From Chloroflexota bacterium (GTDB taxonomy: Bacteria; Chloroflexota; Dehalococcoidia; Bin125), in assembly GCA_009838735.1 (NCBI GenBank), contig VXQZ01000033.1:50826-114825 (forward strand): a stretch of 64,000 nucleotides of DNA, read 5' to 3'. Numbering within the stretch: position 1 is the first letter of the stretch; each line of letters starts with the position of its first letter. Below the pieces are notes generated by a model. The model was not told the DNA's origin, made no database searches, and saw only the letters and a program-made list of their open reading frames with translations. Below, in pieces: positions 3,001 through 18,260 of the stretch. The position numbers and the translations under genes were made by a program.

Positions 3001-3729
3001 TTAAGCGGCGTATTCGCGAGCCAGGTTGTCCAGCAGCTCGACCACGAGATCGGGTGCCGAGAAGAACGGGGAGTGGTCCGTAGCCCACTCGACCACCCTG
3101 TCGGCTCGCCGGGCCAGGGTTCGCTGGCCCTCCGCGAGGAGCGCCTGATCCTCCGTGCAGACGACATACGTTGTCGTGATCTTGCTCCAGGCGGTATCAC
3201 GCGCAGCATCAAACGGGACCGCGCCCTCATCGCGAACCAGCAGGCCAAGGGCTCGCTCGTAGTCTTCGTCCGAGCACTGGTGGTAGAAGGCGTAACGGAT
3301 CTTGTCTTCCTGAACGGTCGTTGACCCGTCTTCGCCGGGAACCACGGCCGTGATCAATTCGGGATTGACGAAGTTGTCAGGGATCGTGCCTTCGGTATCA
3401 GGCATAATCGCCGTGAGATAGACCAAGTGCTTGACGCTGTCGTTGCCCAGAGGGGCGGTCGTCAGCGAGACGCCGCCAAAGGAGTGGCCCAACGCGACGA
3501 TGGGACCATCAATCTCTTCAAATGCCCGACGCACGATCGCCTCGTTCTCGTCGGAGTCGGTCACGCCCCTCAGTTCACCGCTCGCTTCGTGCATTCGCCG
3601 GCGGTCGACCGTGACGACCGGGACGCCTCGGGACTCAAGGCCCGCGACCACCTTGTCGAAGCACCATGGTCCGTGCCAGGCGCCGTGGATCAGTACGACG
3701 GTTGCCGGGGTTGTCGAGGAAGTGGTCAT
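3001..3729 (-). CDS. Alpha/beta hydrolase
   Basis: VVLIHGAWHGPWCF and GHSFGG nucleophile elbow; start moved to internal ATG (MTTSS) preceded by GGAGCAC RBS. Confidence 0.8.
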   Translation of the reverse strand: MTTSSTTPATVVLIHGAWHGPWCFDKVVAGLESRGVPVVTVDRRRMHEASGELRGVTDSDENEAIVRRAFEEIDGPIVALGHSFGGVSLTTAPLGNDSVKHLVYLTAIMPDTEGTIPDNFVNPELITAVVPGEDGSTTVQEDKIRYAFYHQCSDEDYERALGLLVRDEGAVPFDAARDTAWSKITTTYVVCTEDQALLAEGQRTLARRADRVVEWATDHSPFFSAPDLVVELLDNLAREYAA

Positions 3730-3748
3730 GGTTGTGCTCCAATGCCTG

Positions 3749-4300
3749 TCAGGACGGGAATCGATCCGTCGTTGTGGATTCAAACTGCACGCCGAAGCTG
3801 TTCAGCGCCATTGACACGATGTGATATTGACCAACTGCAAAGACAACGTCCATGAGCTGTTGCGTCGAGTACCGCTCGGCCAGCTTGCTCCAGGTGTCGT
3901 CGGAGATGAACGCGTCGTGGTGCAGTTCATCGGCTGCGCGGAGCAGCGTGGCGTCAAAATCGTCCCAGCCGTCGATGTCGGGACCGAGCGTGATCCGGCG
4001 GATTTCGTCATCGGTCAGACCGATGGACCGACCGAATCGGGAATGCTGGGCAAACTCATACTCCGATTGACAGTTCCAGCCGGTGCGGAGGATCAAGATC
4101 TCCCGCTCGCGAGCAGGCAGTGAGGTCTGGCGCATGACGTGGCTCGTGAACGCCTGACGCGACCTGGCGAGCTCTGGGTACTGCGCGATCGTCCGCTGCA
4201 CGTTGAGCGGCGACCTGCCGGATGCAGCCAGGATTTCTCGCTGCTCGTCGGTCGCGTCTTCGTCGGAGACGGGCTCGATTCGGGGCCGCGAAAGTCGCAT
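3749..4300 (-). CDS. Carboxymuconolactone decarboxylase (AhpD-like) family protein
   Basis: 183 aa with CMD-family helical core (ILILRTGWNCQSEYEFAQH); AGGTGA RBS upstream of ATG. Confidence 0.75.
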   Translation of the reverse strand: MRLSRPRIEPVSDEDATDEQREILAASGRSPLNVQRTIAQYPELARSRQAFTSHVMRQTSLPAREREILILRTGWNCQSEYEFAQHSRFGRSIGLTDDEIRRITLGPDIDGWDDFDATLLRAADELHHDAFISDDTWSKLAERYSTQQLMDVVFAVGQYHIVSMALNSFGVQFESTTTDRFPS

Positions 4301-4329
4301 CGATCACCTGCCGCGGGCAGGGTAATGCA

Positions 4330-4406
4330 TGGTCGGAGCGGCCGGATTTGAACCGGCGACCTCTTGACCCCCAGTCAAGTGCGCTACCAAACTGCGCCAC
4401 GCTCCG
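4330..4406 (-). tRNA. tRNA-Pro (anticodon GGG)
   Basis: Reverse complement folds as a cloverleaf: acceptor CGGAGCG/CGCTCCG, D arm GCGC-AGTTTGGTA-GCGC, anticodon arm CTTGA-CTGGGGG-TCAAG (anticodon GGG), T arm GCCGG-TTCAAAT-CCGGC, discriminator A, encoded CCA. Confidence 0.85.
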
Positions 4407-4524
4407 ACGCGGCCCAGCGTATCACTGCGGCATTGTCCGACACGCTTCCGAATGGCCTCCTAAACGAAATCACCGAGGTTCTCTTTAGAGAACAGAAGTT
4501 CATCATATGCAGTAGGCTAACGAT

Positions 4525-4800
4525 ATGGCGCTCGACAGACTTCGGTTCCACAGCATCCTCGTCCAGGAGATGAGCGCTCCGACGGAAACGGCTGAGCGTC
4601 TGGCTGAAGTCGTTGCCCAAGCCACCGATGAAGCCGTCACAGACGAGCAGTTCCAGACTCGAATGGACCTGACGGAAGCACGCCTGCTGGCGGATCACCG
4701 TGCCGAGATCAATCGCCTCCTCAAGTGGATGGTCGGGCTCGGTGTTGCCGTGGGCGGAGGGCTGATTGCGGTGATGGGAATGCTGGTCGCGAAGCTCTAA
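4525..4800 (+). CDS. DUF1640-like small coiled-coil protein with C-terminal transmembrane helix (paralogue 1 of 4)
   Basis: 91 aa; N-terminal ALDRLRFHSILVQE, central coiled coil, C-terminal LKWMVGLGVAVGGGLIAVMGMLVAKL; resembles DUF1640 architecture from memory. Confidence 0.6.
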   Translation: MALDRLRFHSILVQEMSAPTETAERLAEVVAQATDEAVTDEQFQTRMDLTEARLLADHRAEINRLLKWMVGLGVAVGGGLIAVMGMLVAKL

Positions 4801-4810
4801 CTGCGCAACC

Positions 4811-5266
4811 CTACTCGGTCGGTCGCTTGAGCATCATCCCCGTGCGCCGGCACTTGACCACCAGCTCGCCTCGTTGGTTGGTCCCTCGATGCTCGAAGAC
4901 CACGATCCCCCGATCGGGGCGGCTTCTCGATTCTCGCCGCTCGATCACTTCGGTTTCGCAGGTGATCGTGTCGCCGATAAAGACAGGATTGGGAAAGGTG
5001 GTCTCGTCGAATCCGAGATTGCCCAGCGTCGTACCCAGGGTCGTGTCGGCGACGCTCAGACCCACCGCCAGGCCGAGCGTGAAGATGCTGTTCACAATCC
5101 GCTGGCCGAACTGGGTGCTTCCCGCGAACTCGGCATCGAGGTGCAGTGGCTGACTGTTGTGCGTCAGCGCAGTGAAGAGGAGATTGTCGGCCTCGGTCAC
5201 GGTGCGCGAGGGCTCGTGCCGGATCACCAGACCCGGTTCCAACTCCTCGAACCACTTGCCGGGCAT
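4811..5266 (-). CDS. MaoC-like (R)-hydratase/dehydratase domain protein
   Basis: 151 aa hot-dog fold signature ([15 protein letters not shown]...[10 protein letters not shown]); GAGGA RBS. Confidence 0.8.
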
Positions 5267-5279
5267 GGGAGTCCTCGGC

Positions 5280-5990
5280 CTAGGCGAAGCGGGTCATGTC
5301 GTCGGCGGCGTACTGGGCGACGGCATGGTCGGCCGCGGCGGTGGTCTCCAGGCTCTCCAGCAAATCGGAGAGCTGGCCGGCCGGGATGGCGCAGGTCACT
5401 TCGGCGTTGGGCATCTGGGTGCGCACACGCGAGAGCTGGCAACCGACCGAGGCCGCCATTTCCCCGGCCTTGGCAATCGCGATGATGTGACACTGCGGCT
5501 TGCCCTCGATCCGCAGATCGGGGAACGCGTCGTGCAACACCATGAGCTGTCGCCCGGTGATCCTTAAGAAGACGACATCGGGCTCCGTCGGCGACTCGCC
5601 CAGTGGGCCGTAGACGACCTCTTGCGGCTGCTCTTCGACAACGGGAACGGCCATCGCCGCTTCGGGCGTGACCCAGCCTGATTCGAGCAGCGCGCCGACG
5701 TCGCCATTCTCCATCACATCCATCAAGCCGAGGAATCCGTGAGTGACCGAGCCGACTGAGCAGTTGGCGTGATCCTGGGCAACCGTCGAGAATGTCCGGT
5801 CGGTCGCGTGCATCCAGAACACGCAGCCGGCGGGCACTGCGCCCGTGCGGCCGTCGTCTGCCGGCGATGGCATGTTCGACTGGAAACGGTCGACGCCGCT
5901 GGCCGCATCGTGGAACGTGATCGCGAGCGGCTTGTTGGCCAGTCCGAGCGTGCCTTCGAGCTGATCAGAGAGTTCGGCCCAATTGGTCAT
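5280..5990 (-). CDS. DUF169 domain-containing protein
   Basis: 236 aa with DUF169-like conserved Cys/His pattern (recalled); start overlaps the stop of the upstream membrane-protein gene (ATGA), suggesting an operon. Confidence 0.6.
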
Positions 5991-7315
5991 ACGTGAGTTC
6001 CTTCCTCAGGAGTCGCGCCGGGCCGTTGAAAGGCCTCGCGCAGAGTGGGCGGGAAGAGCCGCCAGTGACTCGGCAACATCGCCGCCGCACAGCCAAGATA
6101 GATGACGCCGAAGATCCAGCGAATCAAGTTGTTTTCCTGAAAGAAGAACTGGCAGATCAACTGCGCCAGGAACACGCTGAGCAGCGCGAAGCCGGCGCGT
6201 GCCGTGAGCTGGCGATCGATGATCAGCATGACGCCGAAGACCGACTGCGCAGCAGTGATGAATATCTCCGCCACTTGTGTGTCGCTCGACGTGATTCCCG
6301 ACAGCGCGCCGCCGCCGGCGATGTAGGCGATCGGCACCGACGCGATCAGCAGCGTCCACTGGTTGACCTTGCTGGAGATGAGCATGTTGACGCCCATCCC
6401 TGCCGAGCCCCGCCAGACCAGATAGAGCGCCGCCAGGAACTCGGGAGACTCCGATGCGAGCGGCGCGATCCACTGGATCACGAAGAACTCGCCGATGCCG
6501 ACGTCACGCCCGACGTACTCGAGTCCGTGCACGAACGGCTCGGCAGCGAGCCCGATCACGATGGCCGAGTAGACGATGAAAAAGAGCACGACGGCGCGCC
6601 GCGGCCAGACCGGCAGCCGTCCGATCGCCTCGGCCGGACCTTCCAGTTCAGGTTCGCGGACCGGCGCGCGCGCGAGGCGAATCACGTACCAGAGAAACAG
6701 CACGCCGAGAATGACCGTGTCCTCGAGCGCGATGCGTCCCTTGGCGACGATGATGAACGAGTACAGCGTGGCGACGATCAAGATGCCAACGTCGAGCGTG
6801 ACGCCGCGCGGAAGGGTCAGTTCCGGCTCCGTGCCATCGTTAGGCCGTCCGCGCAGGTCTCGCCAGGCGTGACGGGCAGTGGAGGTGATCAGCTCGCGCG
6901 GACCCGCCGCCTTCCAGGCGAACAGGAAAATCACGGTCGCCCAGCCCACCCCGAGCAACAGCCGGTTGGCGCCGGTCATGTTTGCCAGGGCCAGGTTGGC
7001 CTTCTCCGAGAAACCCGAGAACGCCACCGGGTCGGACGCGTACTGTCCCGCCTCGTAGGCCAACAGTAGATCGACTGCGTACTCGGGCAGCACAGCGATG
7101 AATGCGACCAGCGCCACCGACAGCGCCGCCGGAATGTCATACTGCGACGCCTCCGCGCCGGAGGAGATCAGGAACGCCGCCGACAGGATCGCCAATCCGG
7201 AGATCGCCACCTCCGGGTACGTGTCCAGCTCAATCCCACCGAGTCGGAAGACCAGCGACGGAATCCCCGCCAGCACAGCCAGGATCAGCAGCGTCCACGG
7301 AGATCGAAGTCGCAT
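5987..7315 (-). CDS. Polytopic membrane protein, Ca2+/cation antiporter (CaCA)-like
   Basis: 442 aa, about 10 predicted TM helices, two internal repeats with alpha-repeat-like LPEYAVD / SESPEF motifs. Confidence 0.55.
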   Translation of the reverse strand: MRLRSPWTLLILAVLAGIPSLVFRLGGIELDTYPEVAISGLAILSAAFLISSGAEASQYDIPAALSVALVAFIAVLPEYAVDLLLAYEAGQYASDPVAFSGFSEKANLALANMTGANRLLLGVGWATVIFLFAWKAAGPRELITSTARHAWRDLRGRPNDGTEPELTLPRGVTLDVGILIVATLYSFIIVAKGRIALEDTVILGVLFLWYVIRLARAPVREPELEGPAEAIGRLPVWPRRAVVLFFIVYSAIVIGLAAEPFVHGLEYVGRDVGIGEFFVIQWIAPLASESPEFLAALYLVWRGSAGMGVNMLISSKVNQWTLLIASVPIAYIAGGGALSGITSSDTQVAEIFITAAQSVFGVMLIIDRQLTARAGFALLSVFLAQLICQFFFQENNLIRWIFGVIYLGCAAAMLPSHWRLFPPTLREAFQRPGATPEEGTHV

Positions 7316-7367
7316 CGAATCAGGACAAACAGGTTTCGACTGTCAGTCTCGGGCGCCGTTGCTCACG

Positions 7368-7784
7368 TTATGCCTCGGAGACATTGTCCAACCGTTCAAT
7401 CTGCTGGCGGAGCCGACTCATCAGGAGTAACCAAAGTGCTGCCTCATCCCGAGGCACGATGGACCGAACGTCATGGGAGTAAATGTTTCGGACTCCAGTC
7501 GTCACGCCCAACATCAGATATCGAAGGGACGCGTGCTCATTTCGCTCCTTTGCGGTCTGACGTTCATTGAAGGCCAATGACGGCTTGTCATCAGCAAGAA
7601 CTGACTGCACCAGGCTCTGTCCGTTCAGATCGTCTCTACCGCTCCGATCCGCGATTTCCGCGAGCAGGTCTTGTGCCTCATGACGGATCGCATCACGGTG
7701 AAACCCGCTGGCAAACAGCGATCTGGCGTGGCTAGTGATGCTCATCTCCGCGAGCGTGAACGCCACATCCGAGTCGTCGGTCAT
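7368..7784 (-). CDS. HEPN-like (Rx4H) protein, TIGR02391/Abi-like; candidate RNase toxin
   Basis: 138 aa; ERNEHASLRYLMLGVTTGVRNIYSHD contains R-x4-H; lower GC than surroundings; start codon overlaps the stop of the upstream gene (TGATG). Confidence 0.6.
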   Translation of the reverse strand: MTDDSDVAFTLAEMSITSHARSLFASGFHRDAIRHEAQDLLAEIADRSGRDDLNGQSLVQSVLADDKPSLAFNERQTAKERNEHASLRYLMLGVTTGVRNIYSHDVRSIVPRDEAALWLLLMSRLRQQIERLDNVSEA

Positions 7785-8428
7785 CAGGCGACCAACCGCT
7801 GCGCAAATTCCCGCGCGGAATGTACTCCTGAGCCCCTCAACCGAACCGTTCTCTGGCTGCTCCGGGGCTTCCCCAATACGACCAGATCAGGACTCGTCTG
7901 TAAGGCCTTCGCGAAGTTCGGCTTGTCGTATTTTCGGTACTGTTCGACGACTTTGCGGATGTGGTCCATCTGGGTGTCAAGGCCTAGAGCGGTTCGCGCG
8001 CTTAGCACTAACAGCGCAATCTCGCGGGTGGCCTTGCCTTTCGCCGGGGACAGAAGATTGGGGCGCACTTGAACCTCGGGTTCAGCGTCTTCCAAGCCGA
8101 ACAGCATCTCTGCCTGTTCACCTTCGATCTCCAGATAGGAGGAAATCGCATCCATTCGCAGCTCAGGTGTCGAGTAAATGTCGTCCGCCTGTGATCCGTG
8201 CGGTTCTGCCGCGAGCGACGACTCACTCTCCTCGGTGCCGTCGGAGCGCACAGCATCTCCATTCCGGAGCATCGCTTCCAGGACAAGTCTGAATGCCGTT
8301 TCGCGCGTTTCCGGCGCGACTTCATCGCCGAGTTGCGATGCCGCTAGCCAAGCTTCCCGAACCAAGCCGGCCATCTTTAGGCCGGCGTTGGTCAGCGGCG
8401 CATCTGCGGTCTGAGCTTCTGAAACCAT
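7784..8428 (-). CDS. Hypothetical protein, partner of the HEPN-like gene (candidate antitoxin/sensor)
   Basis: 214 aa from the internal ATG (MVSEAQ) preceded by a GGGAGGG RBS; the longer ORF-track start lacks an RBS; no recognisable domain; acidic, helical. Confidence 0.55.
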   Translation of the reverse strand: MVSEAQTADAPLTNAGLKMAGLVREAWLAASQLGDEVAPETRETAFRLVLEAMLRNGDAVRSDGTEESESSLAAEPHGSQADDIYSTPELRMDAISSYLEIEGEQAEMLFGLEDAEPEVQVRPNLLSPAKGKATREIALLVLSARTALGLDTQMDHIRKVVEQYRKYDKPNFAKALQTSPDLVVLGKPRSSQRTVRLRGSGVHSAREFAQRLVA

Positions 8429-8454
8429 GGTTCCCTCCCGACTGCACAAGCGTA

Positions 8455-11400
8455 CTAGATAATAGCCAACTTCTCCAACACTGACGTCAGCACCGACTCC
8501 CAATCCGATTCTGCCAGCCGCCGAGCAGGCTGGTATCGCAGTTGCGTGGAGCCGATCTGCACCTGCCGAGGAACGGCGAGCCGTCGTTGCGACGAGCTGA
8601 AGTTCAGACCTGGCGCCAGGCGCAGGACCACGTTCTCTCCCTCGGACTGGATGGACTCGGCCCCGATCCTCGAAGCGAGCACCTTGAGCTTGACCGCGCC
8701 GAGCAGATTCTCGGTCGGCTTCGGCAGAACCCCGAATCGATCGTTCAGCTCGAGCCTGAAGTCTTCAATTTCATTTGGCGATTCGACGGCGGCCAGCCGC
8801 TGGTAGAGGGTCATACGCAGCCCGACATCGTCGACGTAGGACTCCGGAAGATAGCGAGGGATCGCGAGGTCGAGGTTGACCCTGGTTCCCTGACGGCGGC
8901 TGACGGGCCGCTGTCCAGATCGTTTCGCCTTCGATCGCTCGACTGCCTCGCCGAGCAGCTGAGTGAACAACGTGAAGCCGACCGCCCCGATGTGCCCCGA
9001 CTGTTGCGCGCCAAGCAGGTTGCCGGCGCCGCGGATTTCCAGGTCCTTGAGCGCGATCTGGAATCCGGCCCCGAGGTCGTCCGCCTCCATGATTGTGGCC
9101 AGTCGGCGCTGCGCCACTTCGGACAACGAACGGTACGGCTCGGTCATCAAGTAGGCGTACGCGCGCACGCTGGCGCGCCCGACACGCCCGCGGAGTTGGT
9201 ACATCTGCGCCAGTCCGAGCCGTTCGGCGCGGTCGATGATCATCGTGTTGACGCGAGGAATGTCGACGCCTGACTCGATGATCGTGGAGCAGACCAGAAC
9301 GTCCGCTTCGCCGTGGGTGAAGCGTTCCATGTGCTCGCGCAGGACATTGGCCGGCATCTGTCCGTGAGCGACCAGAAAGCTCGCCTCCGGCACCAGGCGG
9401 CTCAGCTCATTGGCCTCCCGGTCGATTGTTCTCACCTCGTTGTGCAGGAAGTAGACCTGACCGCCCCGATCGAGTTCCCGCAGGATCGCCTCGCGGATCA
9501 CGCTGTTGTCGCGTTCCATGACGTAGGTGCTGATCGGCAGTCGCTCTTCGGGCGGTGAAGCGATCGTCGACATGTCGCGGATCCCGGTCACCGCCTGATG
9601 CAGCGAGCGGGGAATCGGCGTCGCCGAGAGCGTGAGCACGTCAACCTCGCGGCGCAGCTTCTTCAGACGTTCCTTGTGTTCGACCCCGAAGCGTTGTTCC
9701 TCGTCGATCACCAGCAAACCAAGGCTCTTGAAGCCGATGTCCTTCTGCAGCAATCGGTGCGTGCCGATCGCGATATCAATCTTGCCGACCTTGAGTGCGT
9801 CCACTGTTTGTTGCTGTTCGGCCGATGTGCGTAGCCGGGACAGCAAGCCAATCTCGACCTGCATCGCAGCCAGGCGTTGGCGAAACGTCTCGTAGTGCTG
9901 TTGCGCCAACACCGTGGTCGGCACCAGCACGGCGACCTGATGACCGGACATGACCGCCTTGAATGCGGCGCGGATGGCGACTTCGGTTTTGCCGTAGCCG
10001 ACATCGCCGACGATCAGCCGATCCATCGGCCTGGACGCTTCCTGGTCTCGGCGGACTTCTTCAATCGCGCGATGCTGGTCGGTGGTCTCCACGTAGGGGA
10101 ACGACGCTTCCAGCTCGATCTGCCAGGGAGTATCCGGCTCGATCGGGATTCCCGGCTCGGTCTCCCGGGCGGCATGGAGCTCGAGCAAATCGTCGGCGAT
10201 CTCGGCGACCGCTCCACGGACCCGAGCCTTGGCCCGCTGCCACTGGCCGCCTCCGAGCCTGGTCAGCGTCGGCGGCGCATCGGAGGGGCCGACGTACGGC
10301 TGGACCCGGTCGAGCTTGTCGGTCGGCACCAGCAGTCGGTCGCCTTTGGCGAAACGCAGGTCTAGGTACTCGCCCTCGCGACCACCGATCCGTTCGCGAA
10401 CCACGCCATGGAAACGTCCAATGCCGCTATCGACGTGGACCACGTAGTCGCCTTGCTTGAGGCTTTCCAGCAGATGAGGATCCGAGGCAGGTACGGCACG
10501 GGTCTTGAGCGGTCGGCGCTGACGCTGACGCTCGAATCCGAATATCTCTGTGTCGCTGATCAACGTGACCAGACGCTCTCCGGTCTGCGGATCGTCAAGC
10601 CGCCAACCCTCCGCGATCGCCGCTCGCCCGATCGAGATCGCCAACCGATCAGGCCTGCTCCCAGGTTCCAGCTTCGACAGTGGCAACCCGAGGTCCGTCA
10701 TCAGTTCGGCCAGCCGCGCCTCTTGCAGGGAGACCACGACGTGGGCGCCGCGCCCTCTGGATTCGCGCAGCGATTCGAATAGCTGCGACAGTTTGCCCGC
10801 CAGTCGCGGAGTCGGTCGGAAGGGCAGACGCTGGTCGCCGCTGGCGAGACGGGACAGCGATCGGACCCGACGCGTCGACCGATACATCTCAGCTTCCAGC
10901 TCATCGCAGGTGAGCCACGGATGAGGGAGCCCGTGAGGGATGCGAGCCTCCCACTCCAGCTCACCGCGAGCGTCCTCGGCACGCTGATCACGCTCCTCGG
11001 CTCGAGCAGATACGTCGTGCGGCTCGTCGACGATGATCAATGCATCGTCGCCCAGATGGGCAAAGACCGTGCCGGATGCGAGAAACTGCGTCCAGAAGTC
11101 CGGCCGTGCCGTGGGACCGCCGTTTCGCAGGTGCTCCAGATCCAGCGTCAACAACGCGGCTTCCGCGGTCGGCTCCGCAGCGTCGTTCTCATCCCTGCGA
11201 TCCTGATCAACTGCCGTCAACAGTGCTTCGACCAGCGGTTCGCTGGCCGGCCCCGGACTCCACTCGCGAGCCGGCCGAACGGCGACCCGTTCGACAGCCT
11301 GCGTCGAGCGCTGGGTGAGCGGATCGAATCGGCGAATCGAGTCGATGTCATCGCCAAACAGCTCGACCCTGACCGGCTCGTCCTCGGCCGGCGGCCAGAA

Positions 11401-11964
11401 ATCGACAATCCCGCCTCGCACGGCAAACGTCGACGGTTCTACCACGAGTCGGCGTCGTTCGTAGCCGTTGGCGTCAAGCGATCGAACCAGGTCGGCCATT
11501 CGGATTGAGGATCCCAGACAGAGTTCGATAGGAGCAGAGACCGCGGCGACGGTGCGTTGCGCAGCGGCGTCAACGTCGGCGACGACGATCGGCGAGCCCT
11601 GGCGCAGCGATTCGATCGCGGAGAGCCGCGCTTCGACAGTGTCCGGCGCGGGCTTCTGCCGTTCATACGGGGCCGTCTCGCGGGCCGGAAACTGGAGCAG
11701 CCGGCTACGGTCGCGCTCCCCGAGCCAGAGCGGCAAGGCGTCGACCAGATCGGCGGCGTTGGTGGGTGTTGGCGTCAGGACGAGCACCGGACCCTGATGC
11801 CGGGCGGCCAGCACGGCGATGACGGCCGGCTTGGCGGCGTCGGGCAGGCCCAGCATCGGCTGGGCATCGAACGGCTCAATCGCCCCAAGCACGACGGGGC
11901 CCAGCCCGTCGAGCAGACCCGGCGGGGTGTCGTGCGGGATGTCGTGCGGGTCGGTGGCGCTCAC
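8455..11964 (-). CDS. mfd: Transcription-repair coupling factor
   Basis: 1169 aa; DEAD/DEAH helicase motifs (GDVGYGKTEVA, VIDEEQRFG), CarD-like and TRG domains; GTG start. Confidence 0.95.
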   Translation of the reverse strand: MSATDPHDIPHDTPPGLLDGLGPVVLGAIEPFDAQPMLGLPDAAKPAVIAVLAARHQGPVLVLTPTPTNAADLVDALPLWLGERDRSRLLQFPARETAPYERQKPAPDTVEARLSAIESLRQGSPIVVADVDAAAQRTVAAVSAPIELCLGSSIRMADLVRSLDANGYERRRLVVEPSTFAVRGGIVDFWPPAEDEPVRVELFGDDIDSIRRFDPLTQRSTQAVERVAVRPAREWSPGPASEPLVEALLTAVDQDRRDENDAAEPTAEAALLTLDLEHLRNGGPTARPDFWTQFLASGTVFAHLGDDALIIVDEPHDVSARAEERDQRAEDARGELEWEARIPHGLPHPWLTCDELEAEMYRSTRRVRSLSRLASGDQRLPFRPTPRLAGKLSQLFESLRESRGRGAHVVVSLQEARLAELMTDLGLPLSKLEPGSRPDRLAISIGRAAIAEGWRLDDPQTGERLVTLISDTEIFGFERQRQRRPLKTRAVPASDPHLLESLKQGDYVVHVDSGIGRFHGVVRERIGGREGEYLDLRFAKGDRLLVPTDKLDRVQPYVGPSDAPPTLTRLGGGQWQRAKARVRGAVAEIADDLLELHAARETEPGIPIEPDTPWQIELEASFPYVETTDQHRAIEEVRRDQEASRPMDRLIVGDVGYGKTEVAIRAAFKAVMSGHQVAVLVPTTVLAQQHYETFRQRLAAMQVEIGLLSRLRTSAEQQQTVDALKVGKIDIAIGTHRLLQKDIGFKSLGLLVIDEEQRFGVEHKERLKKLRREVDVLTLSATPIPRSLHQAVTGIRDMSTIASPPEERLPISTYVMERDNSVIREAILRELDRGGQVYFLHNEVRTIDREANELSRLVPEASFLVAHGQMPANVLREHMERFTHGEADVLVCSTIIESGVDIPRVNTMIIDRAERLGLAQMYQLRGRVGRASVRAYAYLMTEPYRSLSEVAQRRLATIMEADDLGAGFQIALKDLEIRGAGNLLGAQQSGHIGAVGFTLFTQLLGEAVERSKAKRSGQRPVSRRQGTRVNLDLAIPRYLPESYVDDVGLRMTLYQRLAAVESPNEIEDFRLELNDRFGVLPKPTENLLGAVKLKVLASRIGAESIQSEGENVVLRLAPGLNFSSSQRRLAVPRQVQIGSTQLRYQPARRLAESDWESVLTSVLEKLAII

Positions 11965-12036
11965 GCGCGCAGACTCCGTCCGCTGACGTCTGGACTCAGC
12001 TTATGGGAGCCTGATCCAACGAACGTTATGCCAGGT

Positions 12037-12690: not shown

Positions 12691-12783
12691 GCGCCTATTC
12701 TTTCATCGGATGCCGACTTGGCGGTTGCGTCAAATCGGGCTAGATCACGCCTAACCGGCAAGTTGGGAGTTTGCGTCGTGCCG

Positions 12784-13068
12784 ATGCCCTCAGAGGCAGA
12801 AGTTAGCCGCGTGCTACTTCTGTTGCTGCACCGGAGCGAATCGGGAATGCGAACTGGAGATGCCATCGTGGCTGTTTCAGTAGCGTTTCCCCAGATCACG
12901 GAGAGCGATCTCAACGAGACTGTCCCATCCGGCGAAAACAGATGGCAGAACCGCGTGCGCTGGGCGCGAAACGATCTTGTGAAGGCCGGCCTCCTTGATC
13001 CATCGCAACACGGATTCTGGCTCTTGACCAAGAAGGGTCACGAGGACGCAAGGCGAATCTTCCCATAG
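12784..13068 (+). CDS. Mrr_N (restriction-system Mrr N-terminal) winged-helix domain protein, standalone
   Basis: 95 aa; SGENRWQNRVRWARNDLVKAGLLDPSQHGFWLLTKKG aligns with the E. coli Mrr N-terminal domain (recalled); GGGAG upstream; a GTG at 12778 is an alternative start. Confidence 0.7.
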   Translation: MPSEAEVSRVLLLLLHRSESGMRTGDAIVAVSVAFPQITESDLNETVPSGENRWQNRVRWARNDLVKAGLLDPSQHGFWLLTKKGHEDARRIFP

Positions 13069-17470: not shown

Positions 17471-17689
17471 ATGGCCGAGGGTGACCCGTTCGAGGACTGG
17501 CTGGACATCGTCGAGGCGGCGAGGGAGCTGAACATCCATCCGCAATCCATGCGCCGGCTAATCAAGCAGGGCCGGGTCCCCGCCCGCCTCTACGGCGGCA
17601 AGTACCTCATCGAGCGAGACCAACTCCTCATGTTCAAGTCCAACTACGACCCCCGCCCCGGCCGCAAGCGCTCCCCTCGGCTGCTGTAG
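17471..17689 (+). CDS. Helix-turn-helix (excisionase/MerR-like HTH_17) DNA-binding protein
   Basis: 72 aa; ARELNIHPQSMRRLIKQGRVPARLYGGKYLIERDQL is a classic HTH_17 pattern; GAGGAG RBS 6 nt upstream of ATG. Confidence 0.8.
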   Translation: MAEGDPFEDWLDIVEAARELNIHPQSMRRLIKQGRVPARLYGGKYLIERDQLLMFKSNYDPRPGRKRSPRLL

Positions 17690-17701
17690 GGGGCTCCTCA
17701 C

Positions 17702-18109
17702 TTAGCCGAATGCAATGAGCAACCCTGAGACGAGCACCGTGGCGGAGAATCCCAGGCCGACGACTCCGATCACCCAACCGCGCAATTTTGCATCTCGTTC
17801 TTCTTGGTCTCGCGCGCGCTGGCGCTCACGTTCATCCCGTTCCCGCTCCCGCACATTGTTCTCTTCTCGGAAATCACTGATTTCCTTGCGAACATCGGCC
17901 ATGAACTGCGCTTGCTGAGCTGCAATCTCCGCTCGCTCAATCCGCCATTGTTCGATCAGCGCCTCCAGCGTGTCCTTACGCGCCAGCGGCTCCATGGCTT
18001 CATCGAGCAGTTCATCCGCGAAAACTGCGAGAGGCTCGGCCATCGATTCCGGGCAAAGGTGTTGGGTGATCAGCGAGTCACGTGTCTTGAGAACGTCGAT
18101 CGATGCCAT
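17702..18109 (-). CDS. DUF1640-like coiled-coil protein with C-terminal TM helix (paralogue 2, longer)
   Basis: 135 aa from the internal ATG (MASIDV) with GAGG RBS; Glu/Arg-rich coiled coil; C-terminal KLRGWVIGVVGLGFSATVLVSGLLIAFG. Confidence 0.55.
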   Translation of the reverse strand: MASIDVLKTRDSLITQHLCPESMAEPLAVFADELLDEAMEPLARKDTLEALIEQWRIERAEIAAQQAQFMADVRKEISDFREENNVRERERDERERQRARDQEERDAKLRGWVIGVVGLGFSATVLVSGLLIAFG

Positions 18110-18260
18110 AGGTTTCCTCGACCTGCTCACGAACGACTTCAACCACCTGGTCGGCCTTGTCTTCTTGTACCCACCCTCGCGCGATCGCTTCTCGCCTGAA
18201 GCGCGCGAGCGTCTCTTCAACCAGGCGCTCGGGCAGCGGACCGTCCACACGTCGCATCAC
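18078..18260 (-). CDS. Possible small (60 aa) charged helical protein overlapping the start of the previous gene
   Basis: ORF-track entry MMRRVDGPLPERLVEETLARFRREAIARGWVQEDKADQVVEVVREQVEETYGIDRRSQDT; overlaps 17702-18109 by about 30 nt in another frame; coding status unresolved. Confidence 0.3.
   Translation of the reverse strand: MMRRVDGPLPERLVEETLARFRREAIARGWVQEDKADQVVEVVREQVEETYGIDRRSQDT

Follow-up and report, generated by a model that had tools for sequence, protein, structure and literature searches.

Why does a pair of small, low-GC genes lie between mfd, which encodes the transcription-repair coupling factor, and the gene for a Na/Ca-exchanger family membrane protein in a Chloroflexota genome, and what do the two proteins do? 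We addressed this question in a 64-kb stretch of contig VXQZ01000033.1 (64,000 nucleotides [nt], called the window below), in which the interval 7316-8454 between the exchanger gene and mfd holds two minus-strand open reading frames (ORFs), genes A and B, exactly where an earlier note made from the sequence alone (the original prediction) had placed them. That note had proposed a horizontally acquired toxin-antitoxin (TA) or abortive-infection module consisting of a HEPN RNase and an unrecognized partner. We found that B is a HEPN protein of the Ymh family and that A belongs to a large family for which the libraries searched hold no annotation, and we consider, with fair confidence, that A and B form a two-gene conflict module of the TA or abortive-infection type. 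The features of the locus are as follows.

7784-8428, minus strand: gene A, 214 amino acids (aa) from its ATG; partner protein of a family without annotation, predicted to be a neutralizer, regulator, or adaptor
7368-7784, minus strand: gene B, 138 aa; stand-alone Ymh-family HEPN protein, predicted RNase effector or toxin
7473-7490, minus strand: RNIYSH, the HEPN Rx4H motif, residues 99-104 of B, read from the sequence
7782-7786, minus strand: TGATG, stop of A and start of B with a 1-nt overlap, read from the sequence
8261-8389, minus strand: residues 14-56 of A, acidic two-helix hairpin at the N terminus (AlphaFold2 model)
8186-8254, minus strand: residues 59-81 of A, acidic, disordered, variable linker (AlphaFold2 model)
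7790-8167, minus strand: residues 88-213 of A, basic C-terminal domain with a winged helix-turn-helix (wHTH)
7838-8041, minus strand: winged-helix core of A, approximately residues 130-197
8429-8454, minus strand: 26-nt spacer between the mfd stop and the A start, with a GGGAGGG ribosome-binding site (RBS) at 8433-8439
8455-11964, minus strand: mfd, conserved left flank, outside the module
5987-7315, minus strand: Na/Ca-exchanger family membrane protein gene, conserved right flank, outside the module

The TGATG overlap, the GGGAGGG RBS, and the 26-nt distance to the mfd stop (TAG at 8455-8457) were all read in the sequence as previously described. A longer, TTG-started ORF for A reaches 8503 and would overlap mfd; because the N termini of 25 homologues align at the ATG, we preferred the ATG start.

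Identification of B as a Ymh-family HEPN protein

B matched the Pfam family PF09509 (Hypoth_Ymh) with 62.7 bits (GA cutoff, 25; E=3.8e-17) over profile positions 6-119 of 119. The likeness to TIGR02391/Ymh-type HEPN proteins, which the original prediction had pointed out, was thereby upheld, although the NCBIfam model TIGR02391 itself stayed just under its cutoff (38.0 bits and E=1.5e-9, i.e., 1.5 bits below 39.45 bits); besides, a protein 78% identical to B (P0032) carries the JGI name "TIGR02391 family." The proposed Rx4H motif was found at residues 99-104, and R99, N100, and H104, as well as H84, were invariant in 28 aligned homologues, an alignment that reaches 28-30% identity and includes other phyla. 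The polar residue after the arginine of the motif is present as well (R99-N100-I-Y-S-H104). A search of the B sequence against PDB chains gave noise only. The predicted structure of B is an all-alpha, up-down helical bundle (HEPN fold) that resembles HEPN structures; RnlA and LsoA rank high among its structural matches. By its profile match, its motif, and its fold, B is a HEPN protein of the Ymh family.

The available text of the HEPN survey (Anantharaman et al. 2013, PMC3710099) places Ymh among the HEPN families and states that its Rx4-6H motif is conserved, that its members occur as solo proteins or fused to paraMORC ATPases, AbiJ-NTD1/2, or AbiTii, often in restriction-modification (R-M) neighborhoods, and that RNase roles are predicted for them in conflict systems linked to abortive infection (Abi) and R-M. 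B accords with this description in its score above the Pfam threshold, its retained Rx4H motif, its HEPN helical bundle, and its solo form, whereas the contexts published in that text do not include a winged-helix partner of the A type encoded by its own gene. Experimental work on the Ymh family is almost absent from the literature searched, and the present locus, coding for 138 plus 214 aa, offers a minimal and testable Ymh system.

A winged-helix partner family outside the curated libraries

For A, the suspicion that its family might be undescribed was confirmed in that A matched no family in Pfam, NCBIfam, PADLOC, or PHROGs; Pfam likewise gave nothing for 63 diverse members of the family, and the A sequence against PDB chains returned noise only. 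The accompanying statement that A has no recognizable domain stood for curated families and fell for the predicted structure, in which a winged-helix domain was found. A word-indexed search returned 26 close homologues of A, and an exhaustive profile search with A recovered 665 cluster representatives at E<=1e-3, 368 of them at E<=1e-10, the clusters being counted at 50% identity. Nearly all representatives are about 190-210 aa long, and most were matched over most of their length. A thus represents a sizeable family without a model in the four curated libraries searched.

In the AlphaFold2 model of A (predicted local distance difference test score, or pLDDT, 82.3), helices 14-31 and 39-56 form an N-terminal hairpin. 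This hairpin is conserved, with an AF..VLE.ML motif and an isoelectric point (pI) of 4.5, and A45 and F46 are nearly invariant over the wide A family; we regard the hairpin as a candidate HEPN-binding region. The linker that follows (residues 59-81) has a pLDDT below 50 and a pI of 4.05, and its columns are variable in alignment A1. The C-terminal domain (residues 88-213) was confidently modeled (pLDDT above 90), and the model indicates that A carries a winged-helix domain there. A is acidic overall (pI 5.05), yet this domain is basic (pI 9.1).

Constant pairing of A and B

The claim that the two genes form a coupled module proved sound. A Ymh homologue was the gene after A in every fetched locus with enough DNA, and this A-then-B order was found in at least four unrelated contexts in several lineages: the site between mfd and the Na/Ca exchanger gene in the Dehalococcoidia clade; locus L005, after gcvP; L039, beside PHP and lipid-A acyltransferase genes; and other surroundings in L013 and L014, in an OM1 bin and in the unclassified "bacterium" metagenome-assembled genome RHO1_bin_3. 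A Thermoleophilia contig (L015) has A and ends before the next gene. Because the pairing is conserved over different neighborhoods, there is good evidence that A and B are a functional unit.

In the clade relatives, A and B meet in an ATGA, TGATG, or GTGA overlap; two distant loci have about 70 nt between the genes, including a GGGAGG RBS. The TGATG overlap in the window suggests translational coupling of B to A, and the pair shows the two-gene architecture of type II TA systems, i.e., small, adjacent, co-directional genes that overlap and strictly co-occur. The 26-nt spacing between mfd and A is identical in L001 and L002. A scan for promoters and terminators detected none between mfd, A, B, and the exchanger gene, and for this reason A and B are probably cotranscribed with mfd.

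A fixed site with atypical base composition

The lower G+C content (GC) and the more frequent A/T-containing codons of the two genes, both features of the original prediction, were verified (GC of 0.58 versus about 0.65 in the flanks; GC at third codon positions, or GC3, of about 0.65 versus 0.78-0.83). GC and GC3 were 0.594 and 0.656 for A and 0.561 and 0.640 for B, compared with 0.651 and 0.776 for mfd and 0.646 and 0.833 for the exchanger gene. The GC of the 1061-nt cassette, 0.582, is the minimum for stretches of this length in the window, three standard deviations under the mean (0.642; standard deviation, 0.02); 0.24% of scanning windows were as low in GC, and every one of these overlapped the cassette. 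Cassette GC was 4-15 points under that of the flanks in every genome with flanking DNA, as in L008 (0.55 versus 0.67-0.70).

The pair was found at the same site, with the same downstream genes, in 13 of 13 distinct related loci examined, and mfd was upstream in 12 of them. Eleven distinct Dehalococcoidia/Chloroflexi loci retain the gene order pth-(X)-mfd-A-B-Na/Ca exchanger-DUF169-MaoC-CMD-hydrolase; L041, at 99.97% nucleotide identity, represents the organism of the window itself. The locus is not bounded by an integrase gene, a tRNA gene, or repeats, no mobility gene adjoins the pair, and there are no defense-island neighbors at the mfd/exchanger site. Rfam gave a single match in the window, a tRNA, and the nearest tRNA gene (Pro, 4330-4406) is 3 kb off, beyond three conserved genes. 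By this synteny and the lack of a mobility gene or boundary, a recently acquired genomic island was rejected. The comparison of mfd neighborhoods cuts both ways, in that the locus is conserved in the relatives whereas its GC stays well below that of the flanks instead of being host-like.

Adjacency to mfd is not absolute. In the distant relative L012, whose mfd is only 59% identical, mfd and A are separated by an inserted amidohydrolase gene on the reverse strand. In L010, A, B, and the downstream genes are kept, and in the region 3600-8000 reverse-strand PHP and lipid-A acyltransferase genes replace mfd upstream; since other genes precede A there, mfd adjacency is dispensable. The upstream flank of L010 is the same as that of the second cassette in L039, which suggests a rearrangement between paralogous cassettes. 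Farther upstream, L010 has two ORFs that may form an R-M pair, one resembling N6/N4 DNA methyltransferases and the other 319 aa long.

Two A-B cassettes were seen in one genome, namely L039 and L040 on JGI contig Ga0393978_000025 (127,670 bp). The L040 cassette is at the mfd site, with an A 76% identical to that of the window, and the L039 copy is divergent (A, 39%). A gene of 331-350 aa without a Pfam match lies between pth and mfd in L001 (1378-2388), L002, and L016-L018; it is lacking in L040 and in the window, where the pth-mfd gap (11965-12036) is only 72 nt, and is thus a second presence/absence polymorphism at the locus. Elsewhere in the window, a stand-alone 96-aa Mrr_N winged-helix ORF (PF14338, E=4e-17) at 12778-13068 on the plus strand, between pth and a rhodanese gene, falls within a second low-GC patch (about 0.57), and the same small gene occurs at the equivalent place in L001. 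A further low-GC patch at 17600-18250 (0.58-0.60) has strongly negative GC skew and contains a 182-aa minus-strand ORF (17702-18250) without a Pfam match.

Hypervariable alleles within conserved flanks

The cassette diverges much more than the genes on either side of it. Between L002 and L007, mfd, the exchanger, and DUF169 are 94, 98, and 97% identical at the protein level, whereas A and B are each 51% identical; in DNA, flanks of about 90% identity (94-98% in protein) stand against about 50% in the cassette. A blastn alignment of these loci at about 89-90% identity ends about 160 nt inside A and restarts about 20 nt past the B stop. Likewise, identity along a 60-nt sliding profile drops from about 90% to 50-60% where A starts and exceeds 90% again just past the B stop, within the first nucleotides of the exchanger gene. 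The cassette is thus sharply bounded, fixed in position, and hypervariable.

Synonymous divergence (dS) between L002 and L007 is 0.26-0.35 in the flanks, whereas the proportion of synonymous differences (pS) in the cassette is 0.74-0.85, i.e., saturated; nonsynonymous divergence (dN) is 0.46-0.49 in the cassette versus 0.013-0.031 in the flanks. Because silent sites are saturated too, faster protein evolution alone is insufficient to account for the contrast. The cassette alleles are much older than the split of the two genomes, which implies either their replacement by recombination with divergent donors or the long maintenance of allele classes. Horizontal acquisition as first proposed therefore fails in the form of a recent island and survives in another form, with alleles that were swapped or are anciently polymorphic. 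Among the 11 loci compared, the window A is closest to that of L001 and the window B to that of L016, suggesting mosaicism and partly decoupled histories of the two genes. In the comparison with L040, both A and B are 76% identical and the flanks 71-96%, and here the cassette looks vertically inherited.

B has decayed at two loci in which A is intact. In L008, B (8642-9056) is a pseudogene with a frameshift near codon 85 and a change of the catalytic His to Tyr (RNIYTY), and in L039, B (5677-6015) has an in-frame stop. The converse, a broken A beside an intact B, was not seen at any locus. These two cases fit, weakly, the idea that B is harmful without A.

Proposed function of the pair

HEPN RNases are among the commonest effectors in bacterial immunity and TA systems. 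Building on the HEPN identity and motif of B, the winged-helix fold of A, the A-B linkage, the conserved locus, and the hyper-divergence of alleles with saturated dS, we infer an RNase activity of B, its toxicity, its neutralization by A, and a trigger that would release it. From what is known of the HEPN family, B would act as a dimer with an Rx4H RNase site and cut RNA of the cell or of an invader. A would be made first from the common mRNA, with the translation of B coupled to it, and would restrain B by direct binding, probably through the acidic N-terminal hairpin and linker, and the basic winged-helix domain may bind nucleic acid in expression control or in the sensing of a trigger. If A were lost, titrated, or displaced, the RNase would be freed and growth would be arrested. 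The swapping of alleles by recombination, or their upkeep as old polymorphisms, would be the signature of conflict-driven diversifying or balancing selection. In its upstream gene position, its TGATG overlap, its basic winged helix, and its acidic disordered part, A is laid out like a classical antitoxin or regulator; both the winged helix and the acidic linker are predicted.

Several results weigh against a conflict module. No promoter belonging to A was detected upstream of it, and no operator-like inverted repeat was found there in the window, nor is one common to the loci with longer upstream DNA; because no promoter, terminator, or operator was found, we do not claim autoregulation by A. 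A tblastn search with an A-family member gave no match in PLSDB plasmids or INPHARED phages, and a scan of IMG/VR with the A profile gave no relative. Pairwise identities of A and of B correlate weakly over genomes (Spearman 0.28), so that tight A-B coevolution is not supported, and it was not used as evidence of interaction. No system model of PADLOC-DB v2 was matched; A had no match there, and the check for a known defense system yielded weak partial matches of B only (PD-Lambda-3_B, E=2.6e-5; Aga_HEPN, 0.0019). Moreover, the pair is present in every related genome sampled, among housekeeping genes. TA and defense genes are usually patchy in distribution, and universal presence at a housekeeping site is therefore atypical.

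Other partners of the A family and alternative explanations

Distant members of the A family precede genes other than Ymh HEPN genes. In L020 (5588-6445), L022 (5558-6445), L037 (1711-1894), and L038 (1275-2114), the A-family gene is directly followed by the gene for a recurring protein of some 280 aa, whose N terminus is wHTH-like and whose C-terminal domain is unknown. This protein had no match in Pfam, NCBIfam, PADLOC, or PDB (the last searched with a 285-aa version), and its C-terminal domain may be an effector domain. We also observed weak ArsR-type matches in its N terminus and the motifs NVFCMTRFP, LHLASDR, GNIGAHMW, LNYN..ELGSM, and GRRC.LLKD in its conserved C-terminal domain. In L024, the A-family gene is followed by that of a 256-aa protein with weak similarity to PDC-S05 and DrmC (phospholipase D [PLD]), and in L028 (4761-5937) there are tandem A paralogues of 191 and then 188 aa (the second with a hmmsearch E=1.7e-35) and no A-effector pair. 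These arrangements suggest that A is a reusable module with swappable effectors. Of the three long contigs for which gene calls were inspected, two have mobile or defense markers near the A-family gene: L020/L021 carries a serine recombinase together with an rve integrase, and L022 carries a phage integrase, GmrSD_N, and an excisionase-type gene (HTH_17). L024 has no such marker. The A family is thus located in mobile or conflict-related neighborhoods in part of its range.

Taken together with the allele data, this leads us to a broader and tentative proposal, which we hold to be possible rather than probable. A may define a hitherto undescribed and rather widespread family, of at least 665 clusters, of winged-helix adaptors or neutralizers whose genes head modular two-gene conflict systems, with interchangeable effectors downstream (Ymh HEPN, the unknown domain of the ~280-aa protein, or a PLD-like protein). 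One of these would have become a fixed chromosomal "idiomorph" between mfd and a transporter gene in one Dehalococcoidia clade, as a long-lived, recombining allelic polymorphism and not a mobile island. Reuse of A with different effectors, if true, would widen the catalogue of modular defense and TA architectures. The locus is a clean natural case of a conflict module at one chromosomal address with alleles turning over between gene-exact boundaries, and such turnover at a fixed address bears on the upkeep of defense diversity in uncultivated lineages that are poor in mobile elements.

Modular defense systems that retain one component and swap effectors exist, and the same data can be read along these lines. 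A would then be a constant winged-helix sensor or adaptor that recognizes a sign of invasion (e.g., foreign DNA or a phage protein) and activates the downstream effector, here the HEPN RNase. In favor of such a sensor are the finding that A-family genes (665 clusters) precede three or more unrelated gene types (Ymh HEPN, ~280 aa, and 256 aa), the integrases or recombinase in two of the three long contigs, with GmrSD in one of these, and hypervariable alleles that fit an arms race at a recognition surface. However, the two losses of B beside an intact A fit the asymmetry of toxin and antitoxin better, the upstream coupled position and the acidic disordered segment of A are classic antitoxin features, and A has no recognizable NTPase or signaling domain. 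We therefore regard a sensor-effector arrangement as unlikely and prefer a toxin-antitoxin-like pair in which A restrains B.

The pair is found at this site in each of the 13 distinct clade loci, 12 times downstream of mfd, and in the window it starts 26 nt past the mfd stop, without a detected promoter or terminator. It could therefore also be taken for a vertically inherited core-gene pair of the mfd operon, made up of a HEPN RNase or RNA-binding protein and a DNA-binding partner, with a housekeeping role in RNA metabolism or regulation, e.g., on transcripts at stalled polymerases; according to the available text of the HEPN survey, some HEPN families, such as Las1 and MtlR, have housekeeping functions (PMC3710099). 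Against this stand the insertion in L012 and the contexts of L010, L005, L013, L014, and L039, in which mfd adjacency is dispensed with, a cassette dN 15-35 times that of the flanks together with saturated dS, and a phylogeny incongruent with the flanks. Besides, B is pseudogenized in two loci, the GC is persistently atypical, and the family is rare and patchy over phyla. A housekeeping pair is, on balance, very improbable. Equally hard to credit is a plasmid-style selfish addiction cassette, trapped in the chromosome without benefit to the host and kept because loss of A kills, which would suit the one site in all relatives despite fast evolution, the decay of B once A is present, and the lack of defense-island neighbors, but leaves unexplained the repeated replacement by very divergent alleles with gene-exact boundaries, which suggests selection for diversity, and the intact frames and catalytic residues in most genomes.

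Comparison with known systems

One of the systems modeled in PADLOC, PD-Lambda-3, shows a weak and partial likeness to B in sequence. Residues 44-128 of B align weakly to positions 174-259 of the 270-position PD-Lambda-3_B profile (PDLC03987), and this alignment suggests that PD-Lambda-3_B may end in a related HEPN-like domain. A, in contrast, matches no PD-Lambda-3 component. PD-Lambda-3 is listed under the PD-(D/E)xK nuclease domain (PMC10952713), and neither A nor B matched a PD-(D/E)xK Pfam family. The pair was assigned neither to PD-Lambda-3 nor to any other PADLOC system.

The RnlA-RnlB and LsoA-LsoB systems (type II) and HepT-MntA (type VII) resemble A-B in that each consists of two genes, with a HEPN RNase toxin silenced by its protein partner. 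In contrast to B, RnlA and LsoA are large and consist of several domains, and their antitoxin genes lie downstream, unlike A. In HepT-MntA, according to the available text of the source, MntA is a nucleotidyltransferase (NTase) that AMPylates the toxin (PMC7641770), whereas A has no NTase signature (no Pfam or NCBIfam match) and is predicted to have a winged-helix fold instead. Membership in the HEPN-MNT (HepT-MntA) group was rejected on the lack of an NTase in A.

Type IX retrons present the closest parallel. In these, the gene for a small HEPN nuclease overlaps that for a protein with a C-terminal winged helix (Mestre et al. 2020, PMC7736814; Retron-Kva2, bioRxiv 10.64898/2026.07.14.738597), and in Retron-Kva2 the winged-helix protein wraps the HEPN protein and keeps its active site covered up to the point at which a phage exonuclease degrades the multicopy single-stranded DNA (bioRxiv 10.64898/2026.07.14.738597). 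A-B differs from them in several respects: no reverse transcriptase (RT) was found among the Pfam-annotated neighbors of the pair in orthologous loci, and within the window Rfam gave no family other than tRNA; the HEPN gene comes first in the retron and second here, after A; the retron HEPN protein is without the canonical Rx4-6H motif, which B has; and the retron winged-helix protein has two alpha-beta HEPN-binding domains in place of the helical hairpin and disordered linker of A. Sequence homology between the two systems was not detected, no direct comparison having been made. With no RT or noncoding RNA, and with mfd and the Na/Ca exchanger gene as neighbors, A-B was rejected as a type IX retron. 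By analogy, this pairing of a HEPN protein with a winged-helix protein nevertheless offers the best mechanistic model of how A may restrain B. Thus, HEPN effector modules are already known as a kind, and what the present locus adds is a winged-helix partner family without prior annotation.

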